Source: Psilocybe cubensis | Taxonomy: Eukaryota | Length of the DNA stretch: 64,000 nt | Reading direction: 5' to 3' | Assembly (NCBI GenBank): GCA_017499595.2 | Contig: CM039002.1 | Span: forward strand, 1,364,001 to 1,428,000 | Shown: positions 3,597-14,400 of the stretch, piece after piece | Position numbering within the stretch: position 1 is the first letter of the stretch | Layout: each line of letters opens with the position of its first letter | Position numbers and translations under genes: made by a program | The notes under the pieces: model-generated | Databases searched by the model: none | What the model was told of the DNA's origin: nothing | The model's input: only the letters and a program-made list of their open reading frames with translations

Positions 3597-5499
3597 ATGG
3601 GAGCGATGGTTTCGACGTTGCGCATGGCTCTACAGACGTTCAAGTCTCTCTTAAATGACTTTGAAGTTGTTTCAAGTCGTATTTCTGAATCTCCAGGCAT
3701 ACCACGTCCCAACAGTTCTATTCCATACTGGACAATTCCAGCATCCCCTATCGCAAATCACGGAAAGGACTCTGATTTACTACAGGAAGTTGACGTTGTT
3801 ATTATTGGAAGCGGTATCACAGGAACTTCCATTGCCAAAGCTCTTTTGGAGCATAAAGACTCCCAATCTGGCGATACCACTGGGAGACTCAACGTTTTGA
3901 TGCTGGAGGCAAGAGATGTATGCTCAGGAGCAACTGGGAGGTGAGTGGATAGATCTGTAGTGGACCAGCTAAAGCGAAACTTCTGCCCATCAGAAACGGG
4001 GGGCATGCTTCGCCCATCATTTATAATGAATATTTTGGTCTAAAGAAACATCATGGTGCTGCTGTCGCGCTGCAGATAATCCAGTTTCGTTTGGCCCATA
4101 TTACGACCTTGCTCGATGTTGCAAAAGAAGCAGGGTTGTTAAACGAATCTCAAGCTAGGACCGTGGACAACTATGATGCCTTCATACAGTCTAGTTTTTT
4201 CGCCAACGCAAAAGGCGAGTTAGAAAGGTTCATGAAGGAGGTGCCTCCAGAAATAGCTGCGCAATTTGGGTCTACTGACGATCGCGAGACTATAGAGGTA
4301 AAGGATTTATACCAGTATTTAAAGCCCTTTGGTTGTAAGGAAATCTTCGTTATAGAAACTTCAACTTGCTACCTCTATTATTGGACTGATTTCAAAGCCT
4401 GGAGCATCCATCCATCCATACCGCCTTGTCACTGGAATTCTTTCAAAACTTCTGGATCGATTTCCAAAGTAAGTGGGTTAAGAACTTGAACACTGGACTG
4501 TATTTATTGACCTGGATTATAACGCGTATTAGCTTCAGGTTATACTCACACACTCCATGTACGGAAATTTCGACTGAGAATGGAAAGTATGTTGTAACTA
4601 CGCCAAAGGGGAAAATACAGGCACGACATATCATTCATGCCACAAACGCTTGGTCGTCGCACCTCCTCCCTGGGCTTCGGAGAAAGATCGTGCCCATTAA
4701 AGCCCACATGTCGACTCAAAGGCCAGGAAAGGGGCTCCATGTAACAGACAATGTTGATAATATCAACCCTTTAGGCGCGCTGGATTGGACTGGCCAACGT
4801 GCATTCGTATTCTACCCTGGTCATGTCGATTATGCGTACGACTATCTCACCCAGTTTTTACCTGCCCCATCTTCTCAAACTGCCATACTATCCTCCGATG
4901 ACAATGGGAACCCTCATAGTGCTGCAATATTGCCGACCGCAGGGGAGTTTATGTTTGGAGGTGGCCTCACTATTGGCGGAAGTAGCGAAGCAGCCTTGAT
5001 GGCCGCTGTTGGGGTTGCAGATGATGAACATACTGATTTCGCTGTCGAAGCCTATTTAAGTGGCGCCCTTCCGATGTACTTTGGCCAGCATTGGGGAGAA
5101 GAAGCTGACGGTAAAGTTAACGATCCTTCTGGCTCTGAGTGGCAGAAAGGTCGCGTAAAGGCGCTATGGACGGGCATTGTTGCAATATCGGCCGATGCAA
5201 ACCCTTGGGTTGGACGTGTGCCTTTGTCTGTTTCAGGGCGTCCGGAGCCTCAACGACCAGAGAGCACACGGTTAACTTCGAATGCAGAGTCATTCCCTTT
5301 ATCCCATTCTGGAGAATGGATATCTGCTGGATATAGTGGTGAAGGCATGGTACATGCATGGCTGTGTGGACGTGCTCTGGCGCACATGATACTTGGAGTT
5401 CCTGATCAAGCAAGTAACCCAACTTTACCAGCACCTTTCTTCATTACGGACAAAAGGGTTAAGCGAGCTAAGATTGAAGATTTTATGGACAATCTCTAA
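3597..5499 (+). CDS. FAD-dependent oxidoreductase (DAO family)
   Basis: Rossmann motif DVVIIGSGITG; EARDVCSGATG/RNGGH across an intron; IIHATNAWSSHLLP; C-terminal WISAGYSGEGMVHAW. Confidence 0.88.
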
Positions 5500-5958
5500 A
5501 TAGGATGAAATGTGTTTGGCTTGAACACATATTATCTTTGTTTTGTTATGCCTTTGAAACTGAAATACAATGGAGTGGATATTACTTCGGGAAAAGTATC
5601 TAGGATGAAAGATTGTCGAAAGTATCCAACTCGCTCTTTTTCATTTAACAATACATGGATTGTATGCGCATCTTTGAGTCGTGTCCGTTGATCGACTAGG
5701 TTGCACTATATTTCTGTCACGCTTGTAATCCCAAGGTCTTGTGCAATGATAACAGCGGCCTTCTCTCCAATTGCAATAGCTGTGTTGTACATATTAGCAC
5801 CAATATTTCCAGGTGCAATGCTACAGTCTGCTTTTTCTGTCAGAGATTATTCCAATTGAAAGGCGGATTTAACGCACCCGCAACTTTGAGGCCATGGATT
5901 CCGTACACATTCAATCGTTCATCCACTACCCCCTTCTGGTCTCTGGGTTTCATAGCAC

Positions 5959-6258
5959 TGTCAGAATCTAAGTAACGAGCGTGAAGCTCGATCTCAGTAC
6001 GTATCGTGGAACGAACTGAGTTGCAGTATCTACCTAAGTAACGAGCGTGAAGCTCGATCTACGAAGTGATGTAATAAGTAAATAATGAATGTTTAATGAA
6101 TAAACTTTAAGCATACCTCAGTACGTATCGTGGAACGAACTGAGGTATGAATCAAAGAGAAAACAAAGGAAATGGGGGAGCACGATACACGTGATGAAAG
6201 AAACGGATGAAGTAGTTAATCTATGTATACGGCGTATCCGAGTCGTCATATTCTAACA
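5959..6258 (-). repeat. 3' LTR (300 bp)
   Basis: Direct repeat of 11159-11458. Element-sense termini TGTTAGAAT...ATTCTGACA form an 8/9 inverted repeat. Confidence 0.98.
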
Positions 6259-9200
6259 CTCCCACTCGTGTGAGGGCGTAATCCCATGATGTTGCAGAAT
6301 TTCCAGTGTTTATCGTGAGATAAGGATTTGGTAAAAATGTCAGCGACATTATCTTCTGTGGGAACGAATCGTACTATCGCTTGACCCTTTCCAACGATGT
6401 CGTCTCGTAGATAGTGGTATTTCCGTTGAATGTGTTTGGTACGTGCGCGAAACTGTGCGTCTTTGGTGAGAATGATTGCAGCTTGATTATCGCAGAATAA
6501 TTCTGTGGGACTGGACTGCTGGTGTCCGATATCCTCGAAGAAAGATCGCAACCACGCCAGATGTTGTCCGGCATGGCATAATCCGATGTATTCTGATTCT
6601 GTGGACGAGAGAGCGACCATGCTTTGTCGTTTGCTTCCCCAACCGATTGCAGCTCTGGAGGTAATAAATACGAAACCGGATGTTGACTTTGAGGTGTCTG
6701 TGTCGCCGGACCAGTCAGCGTCGGAAAACCCGTGAAAATTGAAATCGCCTTTGAAGTCCATATCCATTGAGACGTCATTTCCATCAAATTCGAGTGTCAT
6801 GTCGGCCGTTGCTGATAAGTATCGTAGGACACGTTTTGCAGCTACCCAGTGATGTGCTTTTGGGTTTGCGCTGAATCTTCCCAAAACTCCCACTGTGTAA
6901 GCAAGGTCTGGTCGGGTTCCCATCATGGCATACATTAGCGATCCAACTACGCTTGCATATGTGACTTGTTTTCCGTCAATGTTCATCTCGTAAACTGTTT
7001 CATTGTTGCCGTCGGGGCTGTCTGATGTGAGGTGTAAGTTGGGTGCCATTGGAGTATAGATCGATTTCGAGTTAGACATGCCACATCTTTCGACCACAGT
7101 CTTGATGTATTGACTTTGGGATAAAGATATTGTTCTGGCCTTTCGATTTCGTGTGATTTGAATTCCCAGAATGTACGTGGCTAATCCCAAGTCTCGCATT
7201 TTGAAAGTTTCCGAAAGTTTTGATTTTATACTGTTCATGAATGGGCGTGAGTTTGCTGCAAGGAGGAAATCGTCGACGTAGACCACTAAGAAACAAACTT
7301 CGCCCTTTTTGCCTTTGAACACATAGAGACATGTTTCAGCATTTAATCGTATAAATCCGAGTTCTCTAAGTTTCTTGTCCAGCGTGTGGTTCCATGTCCT
7401 TCCCGCTTGCTTTAGGCCGTATAATGATCGTCGAAGTCGCCAGCAATGTCCTTTCGGAATCTCTACTCCAGCAGGCGGGTGCATGTACAGCTCTTCTTCG
7501 AGTTCTCCATTTAAATACGCTGTCGCCACATCCATTTGATCGAGCTCTAAGTCATATTTGGCTGCCAATGCAAGGATGATTCGGATTGATTCAAGATTTG
7601 CTACTGGTGCAAATACTTCCTTGTAGTCAATCCCTTCCTTTTGTGAGAAACCACGTGCAACTATACGAATTTTATATCGTTCGACGTTTCCATTTGCATC
7701 GTATTTGACTCGCGGAACCATTTTTGACGTGATGGGTTTGACGTGCTTTGGAGTCTGTACAATTTCGTACACATGGTTGTCGTTGAGACTTTGGAGTTCT
7801 TCAGTTAGCGCTGCTCTCCAGTGATGTCCATTTGGTCCGTTGAGTGCATCAATCGCATTTGTTATGATCTCGCGAGCATGTGGGCCAGTACTTGCAACAC
7901 CAGCGAAGTAGATGTCTTCATGATCTACGTCATCAGGGTTTGTGTGATCGGCCCTTGATTCAGGGTTAGGGTCGACTTCCAAATTTGGACTGGCATTGTT
8001 TGGTGGTGATTCGTCCGTAATCCCCGAGTCCGATTCTTCTTCCTCGACAACTGGCCAGTTTTTCCTCTCGACATTTCCACTATCTCTTGATTGCTCGGAT
8101 TGTGTTGCGGTTTTGGATCTTAAAGTTTTAGTGTTTGCACGGTGAGTGTCCTGCAATTTCTTTGCACGGTAATAATCATTGTTGGGTCTGTTTGGTAAGG
8201 GGTTTCGTCGAGGTCGGCTAGCTCCCACTGAGCTTGGGTCAGGTGTATAGGTCTTTCTCGGTCTTGTTATTTTTGGTGGTGGATCATTTACGGCGGTTGC
8301 TGCTGGAATGTCTGCAGGTGCGTCTTCTTGTTGTGTTTTAGCTCCCACTGACGCAATACTGCGCATGACTGTTTCAGCCATGTCCTCCCACTCGTCGTTA
8401 GATCCACTGCCTTCCATGTTATTTAAGTCGTCCAATTCAAGATCGGTAGAAGGAGGCAAATTTGGAGCATCTGTGTGTCGTAGGATTTCGGATTTATTTT
8501 GTAGGATGTCGTGTGATTTGTTTGGGGTGTTTGGTGTGTCATATGAACTTAGATCAATGGGATTGTCGTTGTTCTCATCAAAGCGAACGTGCCGACAGTG
8601 AAATACTTTTCGAGTTGCAATGTTAAGAAGGCGGTATGCCTTTCGCCCTGTTGTGTAGCCAAGTAGCAAGGATTTTATTCCTTTCGACGAGAATTTTCCT
8701 TTTCGTTTGCTTTTGGGTATTAGCGCATAGGCGACACATCCAAACGGTCGGAGCCATGATATGTCCACTTTCACCTTAAAAAGTTTCTCATAGGGTATTC
8801 CTCCAGAAAGTCCGGCAGCGGGTGCTCGTGCCATGATGAACGCCGCAGTGAGCATTGCGTCGGTCCAAAAAGACATTGGTACATTTGAATCTTCAATCAT
8901 TGCTGTTGCTAGGTTTACCAGTGTTTGGTTCATCCTTTCAGATATTCCATTCTGTTCTGGTGTATCCGGCGCTGTTATGCGGTAGGTGACTCCTGTACTG
9001 GCAAGTTCCTTTTTGAATTCTTTTGATAAGTATTCACCGCCGCCGTCAATTTGGAAGAATGAAACAAAGTTTGGTGAGAAGATTATTTGCCCAATCTCTT
9101 CGCCGAATTGAGCTTGAACATCTGAGCGCCATTGTTTGTAGATTCCGAGTGCTTCGCTCTTTTTCTTCATGAAATAAATCCAAGGATATCGACTGTGATC

Positions 9201-11000
9201 GTCGATGAGTGTGATCCAGTATTTGTATCCATGTCGATCTTGGGGTTTGACAGGACCTCCCACGTCGGAGTGAATTATTTGGAGTGGTTTTGAGGCTCGT
9301 TCTCCTTCATGGGATTTGAAGAATGGCTTTTTCATCTTTGCGAGTATGCAAGGCTCGCATAGTTTGGGAATTCCAGTTACTTTGTCAATGTTGACGATGT
9401 GGCCATCTGACACCATCTTTTTCAGCCTTTCCATTGATATGTGTCCCATTCGGCGATGTAGAATGTTTATATCAATAGAGCTGAGTGCGAATTCGGGATT
9501 GGTGTAGTCTCGTGGTTTTGCATCCAGTTGATATAGTCCATCCTTATCCGATCCTTGAAGAATGGATTTACGACCTTTTGACAGTTTGACTGTACATTTC
9601 CCATTCTTGAAGACTGAGTAACATCCTTTCTTATCGAGCTTGCGAACCGATATGAGTGTGAGTTTAAAAGATGGTATAAACAGCACATTGCTTAATTTAG
9701 TTTCGATGTTCTTTCCTCGGATAGTATCACAGAGGGTTATTGATCCGATTCCAGTAGCGTTTACAAAAGATTTGTCGCCAAATTGAATTGGTTTTGGCGG
9801 GTCTAGTGTTTGGAATGTACTGGGATCAAACCACTCACGACATGGAGTCATGTGTGTCGATGCACCCGAATCAAGAAGAATATCGTGTAATGTGTCTCTA
9901 GTCTCATTTGCTGCAAGGTAGGCTTGAATGCGTGTTTTCAATGCTCTATTTACGGACATGGGAGTAGGATTACTAGATGTGTATGCCAAACCCGAGAATT
10001 GGGCTTTGTCCATTGCCTCAGTATCCGATTCATCGTCGTCATCTGATGAGACGGCAGATTCATGCTTAGCCTTGTGTCCAGACTCCTTTTTCTTCCCCTT
10101 TGAAAGTGATGTGGATGCTGCCTTTGCCTTTTCTCTATCCATTCGCTTCTTAGCAAAGCACTCCTTTGTGCTGTGTGACGTCGAATCTGGATGAATGTCG
10201 CAGTGTTTGGGAGTCTTTGTTTTTGACGCTTTTGATCGAGCGTTCAACGCTGACTCGGCATTGGTTGATCCTTGAATTCGAGTTGCTTCGGAAGCGAGGC
10301 GGTTGGATATTTCAGCAAAAGAAAGCTTTGAATCCTTTGGCAATGAGTTTAGGACGGTTGACTTGAAGGTTTGCCACATTTGATCGTCGGGTAATGAGTG
10401 GAGTAAAAGGAATGCGAGAAATTCCGAATCGAATGGCTTCTTCATTGCAGTCAGTTTGGCATCCGCTGATGAAATCGATGATATGTGGTCTTGGATCGTT
10501 GATACGTCTCCGTCCCATTTCTGACTAACCATGCCGACAAACGTGTAGAATGCGCTTACTCCAACGTTGGTGTTTTCGTGCATGTTGATGAGCTTAGAGA
10601 ACAATGCGAATGCAGTTGTTTCCGATGCTGTGTCCAGTACCAGTCGATCAGATATGTGGTCGGTGATGATTCCGTGAGCCTTTGCATCGCGTATCTCCCA
10701 CGAATCTCCGAAAATAGTTGTCAGGCCAGCAGCAGCTGCTCGAGCAGCATTTTCGGCTGCAACAGCGGCTGCCTGAAGCTGTGTATCGTCTGGTTTGGCA
10801 TCTGCTGAGCTTCGAGCGGCTTGAGCGGCTGCTTGGGCTAGGTTGAGCGATGTTGAATCAGATGTGATTGGGGGTTTTGGAGTGATGGTGACATCAAAGA
10901 CTTTCTCTCGTTTGAGTTTGGCGGATATTCTGAGTTTCCAGATCTGGAAGTTCTCAGCGCCAGTGAGAACTGGGCATTTGGAGGTGTCCGAAGTAGCCAT
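6246..11000 (-). CDS. Copia Gag-Pol polyprotein, 1584 aa, uninterrupted
   Basis: Gag N-terminus LTGAENFQIWK; protease LLDSGAS; HHCC HRRMGH...CEPC; integrase HSDVGG/IDGGGEY/PEQNGISE; RT YVDD; RNase H FSDADW...CDNQ...ADIFTK. The stop codon lies inside the 3' LTR. Confidence 0.97.
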   Translation of the reverse strand: MATSDTSKCPVLTGAENFQIWKLRISAKLKREKVFDVTITPKPPITSDSTSLNLAQAAAQAARSSADAKPDDTQLQAAAVAAENAARAAAAGLTTIFGDSWEIRDAKAHGIITDHISDRLVLDTASETTAFALFSKLINMHENTNVGVSAFYTFVGMVSQKWDGDVSTIQDHISSISSADAKLTAMKKPFDSEFLAFLLLHSLPDDQMWQTFKSTVLNSLPKDSKLSFAEISNRLASEATRIQGSTNAESALNARSKASKTKTPKHCDIHPDSTSHSTKECFAKKRMDREKAKAASTSLSKGKKKESGHKAKHESAVSSDDDDESDTEAMDKAQFSGLAYTSSNPTPMSVNRALKTRIQAYLAANETRDTLHDILLDSGASTHMTPCREWFDPSTFQTLDPPKPIQFGDKSFVNATGIGSITLCDTIRGKNIETKLSNVLFIPSFKLTLISVRKLDKKGCYSVFKNGKCTVKLSKGRKSILQGSDKDGLYQLDAKPRDYTNPEFALSSIDINILHRRMGHISMERLKKMVSDGHIVNIDKVTGIPKLCEPCILAKMKKPFFKSHEGERASKPLQIIHSDVGGPVKPQDRHGYKYWITLIDDHSRYPWIYFMKKKSEALGIYKQWRSDVQAQFGEEIGQIIFSPNFVSFFQIDGGGEYLSKEFKKELASTGVTYRITAPDTPEQNGISERMNQTLVNLATAMIEDSNVPMSFWTDAMLTAAFIMARAPAAGLSGGIPYEKLFKVKVDISWLRPFGCVAYALIPKSKRKGKFSSKGIKSLLLGYTTGRKAYRLLNIATRKVFHCRHVRFDENNDNPIDLSSYDTPNTPNKSHDILQNKSEILRHTDAPNLPPSTDLELDDLNNMEGSGSNDEWEDMAETVMRSIASVGAKTQQEDAPADIPAATAVNDPPPKITRPRKTYTPDPSSVGASRPRRNPLPNRPNNDYYRAKKLQDTHRANTKTLRSKTATQSEQSRDSGNVERKNWPVVEEEESDSGITDESPPNNASPNLEVDPNPESRADHTNPDDVDHEDIYFAGVASTGPHAREIITNAIDALNGPNGHHWRAALTEELQSLNDNHVYEIVQTPKHVKPITSKMVPRVKYDANGNVERYKIRIVARGFSQKEGIDYKEVFAPVANLESIRIILALAAKYDLELDQMDVATAYLNGELEEELYMHPPAGVEIPKGHCWRLRRSLYGLKQAGRTWNHTLDKKLRELGFIRLNAETCLYVFKGKKGEVCFLVVYVDDFLLAANSRPFMNSIKSKLSETFKMRDLGLATYILGIQITRNRKARTISLSQSQYIKTVVERCGMSNSKSIYTPMAPNLHLTSDSPDGNNETVYEMNIDGKQVTYASVVGSLMYAMMGTRPDLAYTVGVLGRFSANPKAHHWVAAKRVLRYLSATADMTLEFDGNDVSMDMDFKGDFNFHGFSDADWSGDTDTSKSTSGFVFITSRAAIGWGSKRQSMVALSSTESEYIGLCHAGQHLAWLRSFFEDIGHQQSSPTELFCDNQAAIILTKDAQFRARTKHIQRKYHYLRDDIVGKGQAIVRFVPTEDNVADIFTKSLSHDKHWKFCNIMGLRPHTSGSVRI
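6259..6267 (-). other. Polypurine tract
   Basis: GAGTGGGAG immediately before the TG of the 3' LTR in element sense. Confidence 0.8.
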
Positions 11001-11146
11001 TTTCGGGTACCAGCTGCTTGACAGCTGTGGGATATGTGTCGATCAGGTCTGATCTTGAGATCGCGATTGAATTGCGGACACTCGGAGGGTACGCAGTTGA
11101 TACGAGTTCGTTTCGTTGTAGATCAGGGTTAAAATCGCGCTAGGCG

Positions 11147-11158
11147 GGGCCCATAACC
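11147..11158 (-). other. Primer binding site, half-tRNA-iMet type
   Basis: GGTTATGGGCCC directly after the 5' LTR. It is complementary to the anticodon arm of initiator tRNA-Met rather than its CCA end, as established for Drosophila copia and yeast Ty5. Confidence 0.85.
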
Positions 11159-11458
11159 TGTCAGAATCTAAGTAACGAGCGTGAAGCTCGATCTCAGTAC
11201 GTATCGTGGAACGAACTGAGTTGCAGTATCTACCTAAGTAACGAGCGTGAAGCTCGATCTACGAAGTGATGTAATAAGTAAATAATGAATGTTTAATGAA
11301 TAAACTTTAAGCATACCTCAGTACGTATCGTGGAACGAACTGAGGTATGAATCAAAGAGAAAACAAAGGAAATGGGGGAGCACGATACACGTGATGAAAG
11401 AAACGGATGAAGTAGTTAATCTATGTATACGGCGTATCCGAGTCGTCATATTCTAACA
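11159..11458 (-). repeat. 5' LTR (300 bp)
   Basis: Direct repeat of 5959-6258, offset exactly 5200 bp. Confidence 0.98.
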
Positions 11459-14400
11459 AGCACATGTGCCAATCTGTTACTCGAGTGTCAACCGATGCAT
11501 AAAGGACGTATGAGGTCAGTTTTTCGTACCGAGTGCCAGGCGGTCTCAACTATTATGTGATTGTCGAGATAAATAAATAAATATAGGGCAGTAAAATTAC
11601 TATGACTGGAAACGCACCGTTTCGTCTATGATATTCGTCGATGGCAGCGTCATCTTCTTTCGAATAAACGATAATGGGAGCAGAAACATTGACAGGAGAT
11701 GCCGGTTGTATGGTTCGGGCATTACTATTTTCTTTGAAAATTGGATGTCCGACAACTAGATCCCCTGCGTAGTATTTGAGCCGGCGGCCAAGTTCACGAG
11801 CCTTTTTGTACCCCCATCGAAGGGAAACAAGATCTGACGGACTTGAGCAATTGGTAAGGCTACGCTTATGTTTACTTTTCGAACGGCTGGAAACATACTC
11901 GTCGAGAAACCCAGGATGAAAATCTAACGGAGTTTTTGCATCCTTAGAAGTGACATGGACGCTACCAACTGATGATGGATAACCCTTGTAAACCGAACAA
12001 TATGTCAGATGGATTAAGCTACCTCAAATTGATGAATATGTAATTACCAAGTAATAGCCAATGCTGTAATACTTCCCGCGTGGAACTTCAGGGTTGACAC
12101 CACAGTAGCTGACAACGGAGGTTGCTGGTCAGGCTTTGCTCGTTCGATATGCGGTCATTATAACATACGCAGCAAGTGGAGCCATTAAAATGACAGGTTT
12201 GTCGTGATGGTCAGCTTTAGCGAAATAAGATTGCCATCGATAGTCGAACTCAGGTGAGATTTCGGCAAGCTCCTCTTTGCTTGGGCGCATCCTGACCACA
12301 GCATCAAGTCCACTGGTGAGGTTGATGAGGTGAATCCGCTGAATCTTGTAAGCAAGCACCTACTTGTGCGATAACAAACCACTTCCATCTTTCAACCATT
12401 GCGTTTCGTAATCTGAACCGAATTAAAGGTTAACTGACTTTAGAGAACAAATGGACGTACCTTTGATTTCTTCGGTGCTTCCTCGGAAAATTTGATCCAT
12501 AGTGTCCGCGTCCTCTGTTGCGACAAAAGGAAGAAAGATGACGTTGTGGTCTAAATAGATGTGTACATGAGCTTGTTTTGAGATGTCAAAATCATTGTCT
12601 GACTAGCTTACCCATATAGTTCTCTCCGACGCCAGGGAGGTCCACAACAAGGTCTATACCAGCTTTGTTCAATACCGCCTCTCCACCAATCCCAGATCTC
12701 TCGAGAATTGCTGGTGAACCGAAAGCTCCTGCTGAAACTACGACTAGACGAGATGCTCGAGCGATGAGCAAAGGAGATTCTGTTCCCTTGGATTCATTAA
12801 AATATTCTACGCCAACTGCCCGGCCATCTCTGAATCGACTTAATTAACGAAATCATGTATGCTTTATAGTTGGAATGACCACTTACTCCAAAACGACGCG
12901 TGTAACTTTGTGTCTGTCCAAAATTGCAAGGTTTTTATTGCCCTCTTGGTTGTATATGTAGTGGTGTGCAGTGTCAGACCTTCGTCCCGTCTTGAGGTCA
13001 ATATACCTGATCTTATAAGTCAGATGTAATAGTCACTTAACCTGAACACAATGAAGGTACCTTTGCACTCGCTGAATAAGAGATGCAAATAAGTATGACC
13101 TCTTTTCACCACCCTGGATACACTCACTCCGTACTGATCACAGCTAGTAAATGTATTGGTGTCGTCTGTGATGGTGCGCTCCTGATCAAAGGCGGCTGCA
13201 ACTTCCAAAAAGTTCTCTCCGACATTTACTAAATCTGGCGCGAATGAAACTTTTAGCGGGCCTGAACTTCCATGTGTGGAATTCAGCGTATTTGGTTGGT
13301 GTGTTTCCGCCTTGATTGAATTCGAATTAACAAGGGTGCCTGTTAAGAATACCCTTCCACACCTTTTTTAACAGAGGAATCAAATACTTTGATCCCCAGC
13401 CTTTGTTTCCGTATTCAGTTTCCCAGTCATCGTAGTCAGATGCCGCTCCTCGAGTGTATACCATGACTAGGATGAGATATTAGAACCAAAATAAATTAGC
13501 ACATTGATATCTAACTTGCAATTGACACTCGAGCCACCTCCCACAGCATGCCCGGTCGGCACAATGGGTGATCTACCGAGAAGAGATGGGCTAGACCTGC
13601 CAATGTGGAAGGTGAAAGTTTCCTTGACCTGAGCGAAGTTGCTAAAATATCGGGCAGGTTGAACACAGTCTTCCATTCCTTTGACGTGTGGACCGGATTC
13701 CACAATCTAAGCGCCTTCCTGAGTTTCATCACTATTTCGAAAATTAGTTGACATACCAGAATCTTTAGGCTAGGGTCAGCCTCGGCAAGACGGCCAGCTG
13801 TGATGCAGGCTGATGCCCCTCCTGGTGTGTTTCCAAAGGATGGTTGGCATCAACGAGTTGGATATCATGTCTTGTCAAAGACGAACCTCCTGCAAAGATT
13901 ATATCATATGTCGATTCTGACCCTGCAGTTTGCTGGTGCGAATGCATATTCCCAGATAGGTTTGAGTATAAGACCAATCAAATGCCCAAAGCAAGCAAGG
14001 ACTTGACGAACTACTGTCCTGCGAGTTGCAATATTTATCGCTAACAACGCCCGGGTGGAACGGTGACAACTCATCCTCCATCATTCGGTAATTGGTTCAT
14101 TGAACGTGGCGATGTTTAATGCAAAAGGGTGCGCATGCGAAAGTCGAGAAGTTGTCAGATGTCCAAGCCATGTACTACAATGTACTATCGTGCTTGGCTC
14201 TTGATGTGCTGCGGAAACGGAACAACGGATAGAACAATAACATTAGCCGGCCTTAAGGTAAGCTAGACTCGGAGTCTGCGACCGGGAAACCTAGGGAAAG
14301 GGCACGAAGTCCAATGATTAAAGTTCCAGATCCTGTGAATGGTCATTCAAGTTTCAACATATCGGCTTGATACCACTAACTGCACGTACACATTTCCTTG

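Follow-up and report, generated by a model that had tools for sequence, protein, structure and literature searches.

How can a retrotransposon keep introns in the leader of the very RNA that its reverse transcriptase copies? The question is raised by a Ty1/Copia element of Psilocybe cubensis on the minus strand of contig CM039002.1 (assembly GCA_017499595.2, positions 1,364,001 to 1,428,000), a stretch of 64,000 nucleotides (nt) that is called the window here. Each long terminal repeat (LTR) of this element carries an intron-like segment and, a few nucleotides downstream, an exact copy of the sequence that splicing of that segment would leave. Retroelements are expected to lose introns that are spliced from the copied RNA, and intron loss is thus a hallmark of retrotransposition. 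Without introns, the majority of the genes tested in Cryptococcus neoformans no longer accumulate their mRNA (PMC3744415), and the need for introns in basidiomycete mRNA accumulation is also described in PMC4935854 and PMC8379801. Since basidiomycete genes often need introns, a retrotransposon in such a host is exposed to a conflict between expression and faithful copying. We propose that this LTR is probably built in such a way that the leader can be spliced and the next DNA copy still receives the introns. We also lean, if only slightly, towards a wider view, that leader-spliced genomic RNA is the template of replication in a broad set of fungal Copia lineages, with a pre-spliced duplicate of the leader exons at the LTR end serving as the landing site of strong-stop DNA and the introns being recopied from the 3' LTR in every generation.

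Read in the sense of the element, each LTR consists of a unique 3' region (U3, 114 nt), a block X1 (28 nt), a GT..AG segment (58 nt), a block Y1 (25 nt), a spacer of 13 nt, a fused block X2Y2 (53 nt) and 9 nt of unique 5' region (U5), ATTCTGACA; in the 5' LTR the primer-binding site (PBS) then follows. The parts are located in the window as follows.

11345..11458, minus strand: U3 of the 5' LTR, upstream of X1, with a pyrimidine-rich tract at its end and a putative promoter role
11317..11344, minus strand: X1, called block B before, the proposed first exon, whose start is the proposed transcription start site (TSS); exact repeat of 11193-11220
11259..11316, minus strand: intron 1, 58 nt, GTATGC..CTTAT..TCGTAG, missing to the base from the fused copy
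11234..11258, minus strand: Y1, called block A before, a proposed 25-nt micro-exon that ends in TTAG; exact repeat of 11168-11192
11221..11233, minus strand: spacer GTAGATACTGCAA, 13 nt, the proposed 5' end of intron 2 and a possible polyadenylation (poly(A)) signal region
11168..11220, minus strand: X2Y2, 53 nt, the pre-spliced X1 plus Y1; in the 5' LTR the proposed 3' part of intron 2
11159..11167, minus strand: U5 remnant ATTCTGACA, end of the LTR
6059..6116, minus strand: copy of intron 1 in the 3' LTR, which would stay unspliced in the template RNA
5968..6020, minus strand: X2Y2 of the 3' LTR, the proposed strong-stop acceptor (effective repeated region, R) and poly(A) region, a role suggested by the layout and by concerted evolution

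The same layout is found in the 3' LTR at 6144-5959. The block order and all coordinates that an earlier note on this DNA had given proved to be correct in both LTRs, and its description of the fused copy as the exact splice product of the split segment was confirmed by sequence match: X2Y2 is X1 plus Y1 minus the 58 nt, with a junction that is ambiguous by 2 nt (AG). As DNA, the fused copy gives indirect evidence that the segment is removed from RNA. The X and Y blocks each occur four times in the window, two per LTR, with 0 mismatches, while the number expected from 100 dinucleotide shuffles is 0.00. The 58-nt segment had been said to possess the size and ends of host introns, and this holds as well; it has GT..AG borders, G at position +5 and a CTNAY motif (CTTAT) 16 nt from the 3' end, and a comparable GT..AG intron of 50 nt can be read by eye in the flanking GMC oxidoreductase gene. 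The second GT..AG segment that had been claimed is likewise present, spanning 66 nt (11233-11168) and formed by the spacer and X2Y2; it is the candidate intron 2. Moreover, X1 can be folded into a hairpin, CTCAGT..ACTGAG, of -9.7 kcal/mol (z-score -3.2).

After its first four bases, the spacer (ATACTGCAA) resembles the U5 remnant at 6 of 9 positions, and a similar likeness is seen in the related locus L049. The likeness hints that the layout may have begun as a tandem duplication of R and U5.

In the proposed cycle, transcription of the 5' LTR would begin with the first base, or the first few, of X1, and the leader would undergo two splicing events, one removing the 58-nt intron 1 and the other intron 2, the 13-nt spacer together with X2Y2. 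The RNA would then begin with X-Y-U5 (9 nt)-PBS. The other end of the RNA would lie in or just after the X2Y2 of the 3' LTR, which would make intron 2 unremovable there, and some of the RNAs, if not all, would have to keep intron 1 in the 3' LTR. Strong-stop DNA of the minus strand, complementary to X-Y-U5, would anneal to the 3' X2Y2, and its extension would copy the spacer, Y1, intron 1, X1 and U3 in turn; plus-strand synthesis of the usual kind would then produce the full LTR at both ends. In each cycle X2Y2 would be overwritten by the splice product of X1 and Y1, and the introns would be recopied from the 3' LTR. This cycle, which the earlier note had already proposed, is the simplest one that keeps the introns and also renews the fused copy. 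We infer its TSS, both splicing events, the poly(A) position, the target of strand transfer and the benefit of the introns to expression. Two other arrangements were rejected by reasoning only: a poly(A) site after Y1, with which intron 1 is lost, and a TSS at X2, with which the fused copy is not renewed.

The closest named relatives of the Gag-Pol protein, compared over the reverse transcriptase-RNase H (RT-RH) part, belong to Agaricales (Panaeolus, 69%; Candolleomyces and Coprinellus, ~62%). With an alignment of 16 proteins, 544 relatives were retrieved from metagenome contigs, and the best 80 of them, of 29-61% identity, were analysed. A scan of viral contigs yielded one distant locus, L081 (29% identity), which stands outside the counts. 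The arrangement X-intron-Y-spacer-XY, called type II below, is present in 10 of the 80 related loci, in all cases on the element strand and with the gap always in the first copy. Seven of these loci were found by a split-repeat script that demands exact arms, and L001, L002 and L033 were added by a junction-probe scan. With up to 3 mismatches allowed, the latter scan gave 14 loci, 10 of which were kept, while four decoy dinucleotide pairs gave 4-8 loci each; the decoy matches are attributed to tandem repeats. The four loci dropped (L023, L025, L052 and L070) have 3 mismatches each and are probable repeat noise. After masking with Tandem Repeats Finder, the GT..AG register was found in 10 of 74 split-repeat events on the plus strand (9 loci) and in 0 of 90 on the minus strand. 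The layout is more than chance, as its GT..AG form recurs on the element strand only.

In a midpoint-rooted FastTree phylogeny of the RT-RH part, type II elements fall into three clades. The earlier note had proposed a scan for X-GT..AG-Y followed by XY, in which recurrence with unrelated X and Y would point to selection, and had regarded absence from other families as evidence of a one-off template-switch relic in this single element. The outcome of the scan supports the interpretation given in the note, and among the refuting outcomes that were checked, siblings without a segment and absence from other families, none was observed. A relic would suit a source genome with this copy only, and that is what the reads indicate: among four DNA runs aligned to 10700-11560 at 80% likeness, the source-like run X1 holds a single copy, with a depth of 38.3 over the LTR and 19.7 over the interior. 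The relic reading is contradicted, however, by the recurrence of the layout in the 10 other loci, each with different X and Y, and of a simpler form, type I, in nine more, and it is extremely unlikely.

One relative, L034, carries the layout in both of its LTRs. There (near 2941-2965 and 7780-7800) the end of the LTR cuts through the final AG of Y, and in the 5' LTR its G already belongs to a PBS-like motif, as the first base.

Together with the element in the window, the related loci make up 11 type II elements with a common anatomy. The GTA, AG and length features listed here played no part in selecting them.

Intron 1: 46-58 nt
Y: 11-25 nt, with AG at the end in 11/11
Spacer: 7-20 nt, with GTA at the start in 11/11
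Spacer plus X2Y2: 51-66 nt
XY to the end of the LTR, where a PBS is visible: 6-9 nt, at most 9 nt; in L034 the LTR ends within Y

In these elements intron 1 has G at +5 in 10 of 11 cases and a CTNAY motif at branch distance in 9, against 4.6 expected from shuffles. The X block always starts within CTCAG and ends with CTGAG or a near variant, and a hairpin is present in 11/11 (z-scores from -1.7 to -6.7) with inner stems that differ in sequence. The left edge of the repeated block coincides with an initiator-like CTCAGT and shifts by 0-3 nt within CTCAG from element to element. A TATA-like motif lies 29-35 nt upstream of the X edge in 8 of 16 elements and at -47 in one, and none is seen in the other 7. 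A shifting edge with an upstream TATA is how the 5' end of a copied RNA would be expected to look.

The AT-rich spacers often end in AATA-like motifs (by reading). They may act as a poly(A) signal; cleavage would then fall within X2Y2, and intron 2 would be shielded at the 3' end.

No third XY copy was found in the 11 type II LTRs. Two variants of the cycle were dropped. If a leader spliced for intron 1 only were transferred, three XY copies or intron loss would be predicted, and a third copy is what these LTRs lack; a splice reaching in one step from X1 to the border of X2 and Y2 would need X to end in AG, which it does not in L006, L060 and L080.

The two copies within an element evolve in concert. 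Across the type II elements, X1Y1 and X2Y2 are identical at 476 of 489 positions (97%), and the differences within elements are located in copies that also show transition decay. When XY is compared between elements, the median identity is 0.59 and the highest value 0.76; for the RT-RH part of the 11 elements, amino-acid identities go down to 0.36, with a median of 0.42. Even the sister pairs L006/L002, L034/L047 and L042/L033 differ in X and Y, each element keeping its own version in both copies. A frozen ancestral duplication is ruled out because the copies are near-identical within elements and diverged between them. To judge from this pattern, the fused copy must have been remade again and again, presumably from the spliced RNA of the lineage itself.

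The same pattern bears on the reading of the layout as a recurrent by-product. In that case the leader intron would be real and replication would proceed from unspliced RNA, strong-stop DNA made on spliced RNA would occasionally be joined in an aberrant way to the unspliced 3' end, and the resulting layout would be tolerated without being a working part. Retroelements are generally taken to package unspliced RNA, many relatives manage without the layout, and the exact loss of intron 1 from the fused copy is accounted for. However, accidents that happened separately would not lead to one fine structure shared by three clades, including the GTA and AG ends in every element, the 51-66 nt length and the position of XY near the LTR end. 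Moreover, if the layout is old, near-identity within elements against 59% between them needs repeated renewal, just as in the cycle proposed above. The by-product reading is unlikely.

A simpler form, type I, has the structure X-spacer-X, in which the spacer starts with GT and X ends with AG, and is present in nine loci (L009, L011, L017, L021, L051, L057, L070, L072 and L076). The spacer and the second copy together measure 48-79 nt, and a leader from which both were removed would match the downstream DNA exactly. Among exact direct repeats of at least 14 nt with a spacing of 35-110 nt, an AG|GT border is found in 16 of 60 pairs on the plus strand and in 0 of 60 on the minus strand. In a relaxed scan, 16 loci were obtained on the plus strand, compared with 2-5 for five decoy dinucleotide pairs and 1 on the minus strand. 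By our own count, the type I spacer has G at +5 in 7 of 9 loci. In the RT-RH tree, type I is mainly confined to one clade, with L057 elsewhere. Either type I or type II is present in 19 of the 80 loci. L055 was dropped as a type I candidate, being a run of 40-nt tandem units.

These counts also bear on slippage of a tandem R. On that account, R would have been duplicated in tandem and kept uniform by out-of-register transfers, intron 1 alone would be spliced, and GTA would be kept for another reason, such as a poly(A) or pause signal. The absence of the usual +5 G from most type II introns 2, their lack of branch-motif enrichment, and the AT-rich spacers with their AATA-like ends all suit this account. 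Against it, an out-of-register transfer should give three XY copies, of which none was seen, and an in-register transfer would remove intron 1; the type I spacers, furthermore, possess a good 5' splice site, and the AG|GT border is distributed 16:0 between the strands. Tandem-R slippage is accordingly quite unlikely.

Under the proposed replication from spliced leaders, partial splicing should yield by-products of three kinds: XY-U5, X-intron-Y-U5 and XY-spacer-XY. Comparable forms are found among the relatives in L071, L024, the 3' LTR of L072 and type I itself. In L071 (contig start and end) a hairpin X is joined to Y without an intron and is followed by a U5 of 52 nt, and in L024 (near 380-497) X-intron-Y is found without a fused copy. 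The 5' LTR of L072 (near 100-230) reads X-spacer-X-U5 and its 3' LTR (near 4800-4960) X-U5, as if the spacer and the second copy had been spliced or had slipped out; L072 may be a heterogeneous element or a chimeric assembly.

Sibling copies were sought in the four DNA runs. Runs X7, X8 and X11 contain the filled site, an empty site and a second locus; the insertion is thus polymorphic, as filled and empty sites occur in all three. According to the earlier note, siblings that freely lack the intron or the fused copy would point to a relic. In the four runs no joints were found, so that down to a level of 5% no sibling had lost either the 58-nt or the 66-nt segment; a contig from run X8 that differs at 14 places and has 4 one-letter indels within 165 nt is still unbroken across 11177-11341. 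Siblings in other strains differ almost exclusively by C>T and G>A changes (for instance 30 and 41 of 101 places in run X8), and the sites that were checked have TCG context. This looks like decay of the type caused by repeat-induced point mutation (RIP), or methylation-driven repeat decay.

Several points weigh against replication from a spliced leader as proposed here. The cycle demands that intron 1 be removed from the 5' end of an RNA that keeps it at its other end. Intron 2 of the type II elements is poorly marked: G is found at +5 in 1 of 11, and CTNAY at branch distance in 4 of 11, compared with 2.9 expected. By a rough criterion, 64 loci have an LTR end that can be judged, and the layout is present in 18 of these and absent from 46; since most relatives are without it, the layout is not required for Copia replication. 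Plain LTRs, for example those of L007 and L039, also stand between positive clades in a tree that carries no support values, and the metagenome contigs may include chimeras. Finally, a G>A change at 11337, within block X1, is common elsewhere (47.3/47.3 in run X7, 590/618 in run X8 and 34/102 in run X11), and the matching X2 place, 11213, is absent among the variants listed, 63 further ones lying outside the list. If the changes at 11337 were inherited through transposition, this would argue against overwriting in each cycle.

No description of an LTR with an intron beside its own spliced copy was found in the literature searched, which did not extend to subscription journals, Repbase notes and supplementary files. 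Judged from sequence, the arrangement is a new design variant of the LTR retrotransposon that is widespread among fungal Copia elements. It has much in common with canonical Ty1/Copia and retroviral LTR replication, namely LTRs, a tRNA-type PBS, a purine tract, the order gag-protease-integrase-reverse transcriptase and a 5-bp duplication, and the proposed cycle uses the two ordinary strand transfers. It would depart from the canonical U3-R-U5 plan in that different stretches are transcribed from the 5' LTR and serve as R: at the 5' end X1-intron-Y1-spacer would be transcribed, yet in reverse transcription it would behave like U3, and the effective R (XY) would be uninterrupted in DNA in the downstream copy alone and in RNA not before splicing.

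In some retroviruses, such as the deltaretroviruses and foamy viruses, a splice donor lies in R or the leader, unspliced RNA is packaged and the introns span the coding region. They likewise have splice signals in or near the LTR and ignore a promoter-proximal poly(A) signal at the 5' end; unlike the present element, they hold neither a whole intron within the LTR nor a spliced duplicate beside one. Structures that the RNA lacks are rebuilt by reverse transcription in man-made retroviral vectors with split introns or LTR introns and, by means of its internal complementary region, in DIRS1. Neither these vectors nor DIRS1, a tyrosine-recombinase element, uses a pre-spliced copy of R.

Penelope contains a 75-bp intron 46 bp downstream of the start site that is retained through transposition; removal of this intron abolishes reporter expression, and selection for it is suggested by the authors of that study (PMC2377424). 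The kept leader intron is the sole resemblance to the present element; Penelope-like elements belong to another class, with a GIY-YIG endonuclease and without integrase, and the excerpted text of PMC2377424 describes no pre-spliced copy, while the retention device proposed here is Copia LTR sequence. In Arabidopsis, the RNA of a Ty1/Copia element is spliced into a gag-only message (PMC5580714). Host splicing is again used for expression in that system; its intron, in contrast, is part of the coding region and adjusts the ratio of proteins, and has no bearing on the LTR or on strand transfer. The introner-type Copia elements (PMC12130899) are a different matter.

If true, the layout would resolve the conflict between expression and copying by sequence alone. 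It would be a natural solution to the rule that introns are erased, and R would have to be redefined as a sequence that the RNA does not contain until it is spliced. The annotation of fungal LTRs would change, because U3, R and U5 could not be read from the DNA, and a set of LTR variants could be explained as by-products of partial splicing. As a possible use, the LTR might provide a compact leader cassette for expression in mushroom-forming fungi.

The element that carries these LTRs is young and whole, as indicated by identical LTRs (100% over 300 nt), a target-site duplication and an intact open reading frame (ORF). Its remaining parts are given below.

5959..11458, minus strand: complete Ty1/Copia LTR retrotransposon with identical LTRs, TG..CA ends, 5-bp duplication and a single ORF of 1584 amino acids (aa)
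11159..11458, minus strand: 5' LTR, 300 nt, with the ends TGTTAG..CTGACA
5959..6258, minus strand: 3' LTR, 300 nt
11459..11463, minus strand: upstream copy of the target-site duplication GTGCT, the same 5 nt as 5954-5958
5954..5958, minus strand: downstream copy of the target-site duplication GTGCT; the empty site with joined flanks is seen in runs X7, X8 and X11
6246..11000, minus strand: Gag-Pol ORF, 1584 aa, with the final codons and the stop inside the 3' LTR
11146..11158, minus strand: candidate PBS, GGTTATGGGCCCC, immediately 3' of the 5' LTR
6259..6267, minus strand: candidate polypurine tract, the purine-rich GAGTGGGAG, adjoining the 3' LTR, with a function suggested by its position

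Pfam matches on Gag-Pol comprise Retrotran_gag_2 (99-244), Pol_BBD (375-460), gag_pre-integrs (488-556), rve (570-681) and RVT_2 (1075-1319), and a protease-like barrel is also present. The domain order gag-protease-integrase-reverse transcriptase, with the integrase before the reverse transcriptase, is that of Copia. The Pfam scan of Gag-Pol gave no separate match for RNase H and none for GIY-YIG, while integrase and RVT_2 are present. The ORF enters the 3' LTR by 13 nt (6246-6258), and its stop codon is therefore LTR sequence. The GGTTATGGGCCCC motif, which we take to be complementary to an internal part of initiator tRNA-Met, is also found directly after the LTR in L002, L042 and many other loci; no tRNA genes were found within the window. 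Many relatives have a similar junction, GGGAGTGTTGA, between purine tract and LTR start.

The element is inserted inside a GMC oxidoreductase gene, in the same orientation as the gene (window positions 5700-5958 and 11459-13800, minus strand). Such a position would suit splice sites that spare the host, by which the LTR would be spliced out of host transcripts after landing in a gene, comparable to introner-like elements; Copia elements and solo LTRs acting as introns have been reported (PMC12130899). The candidate introns, however, would remove 124 of the 300 nt of the LTR and none of the 5-kb interior, and the fused copy and its concerted evolution would be left unexplained, which makes this reading very unlikely. 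Upstream of the element, exon-like ORFs give Pfam matches to GMC_oxred_N, and the C-terminal coding sequence of the GMC gene reads on across the target duplication (by reading).
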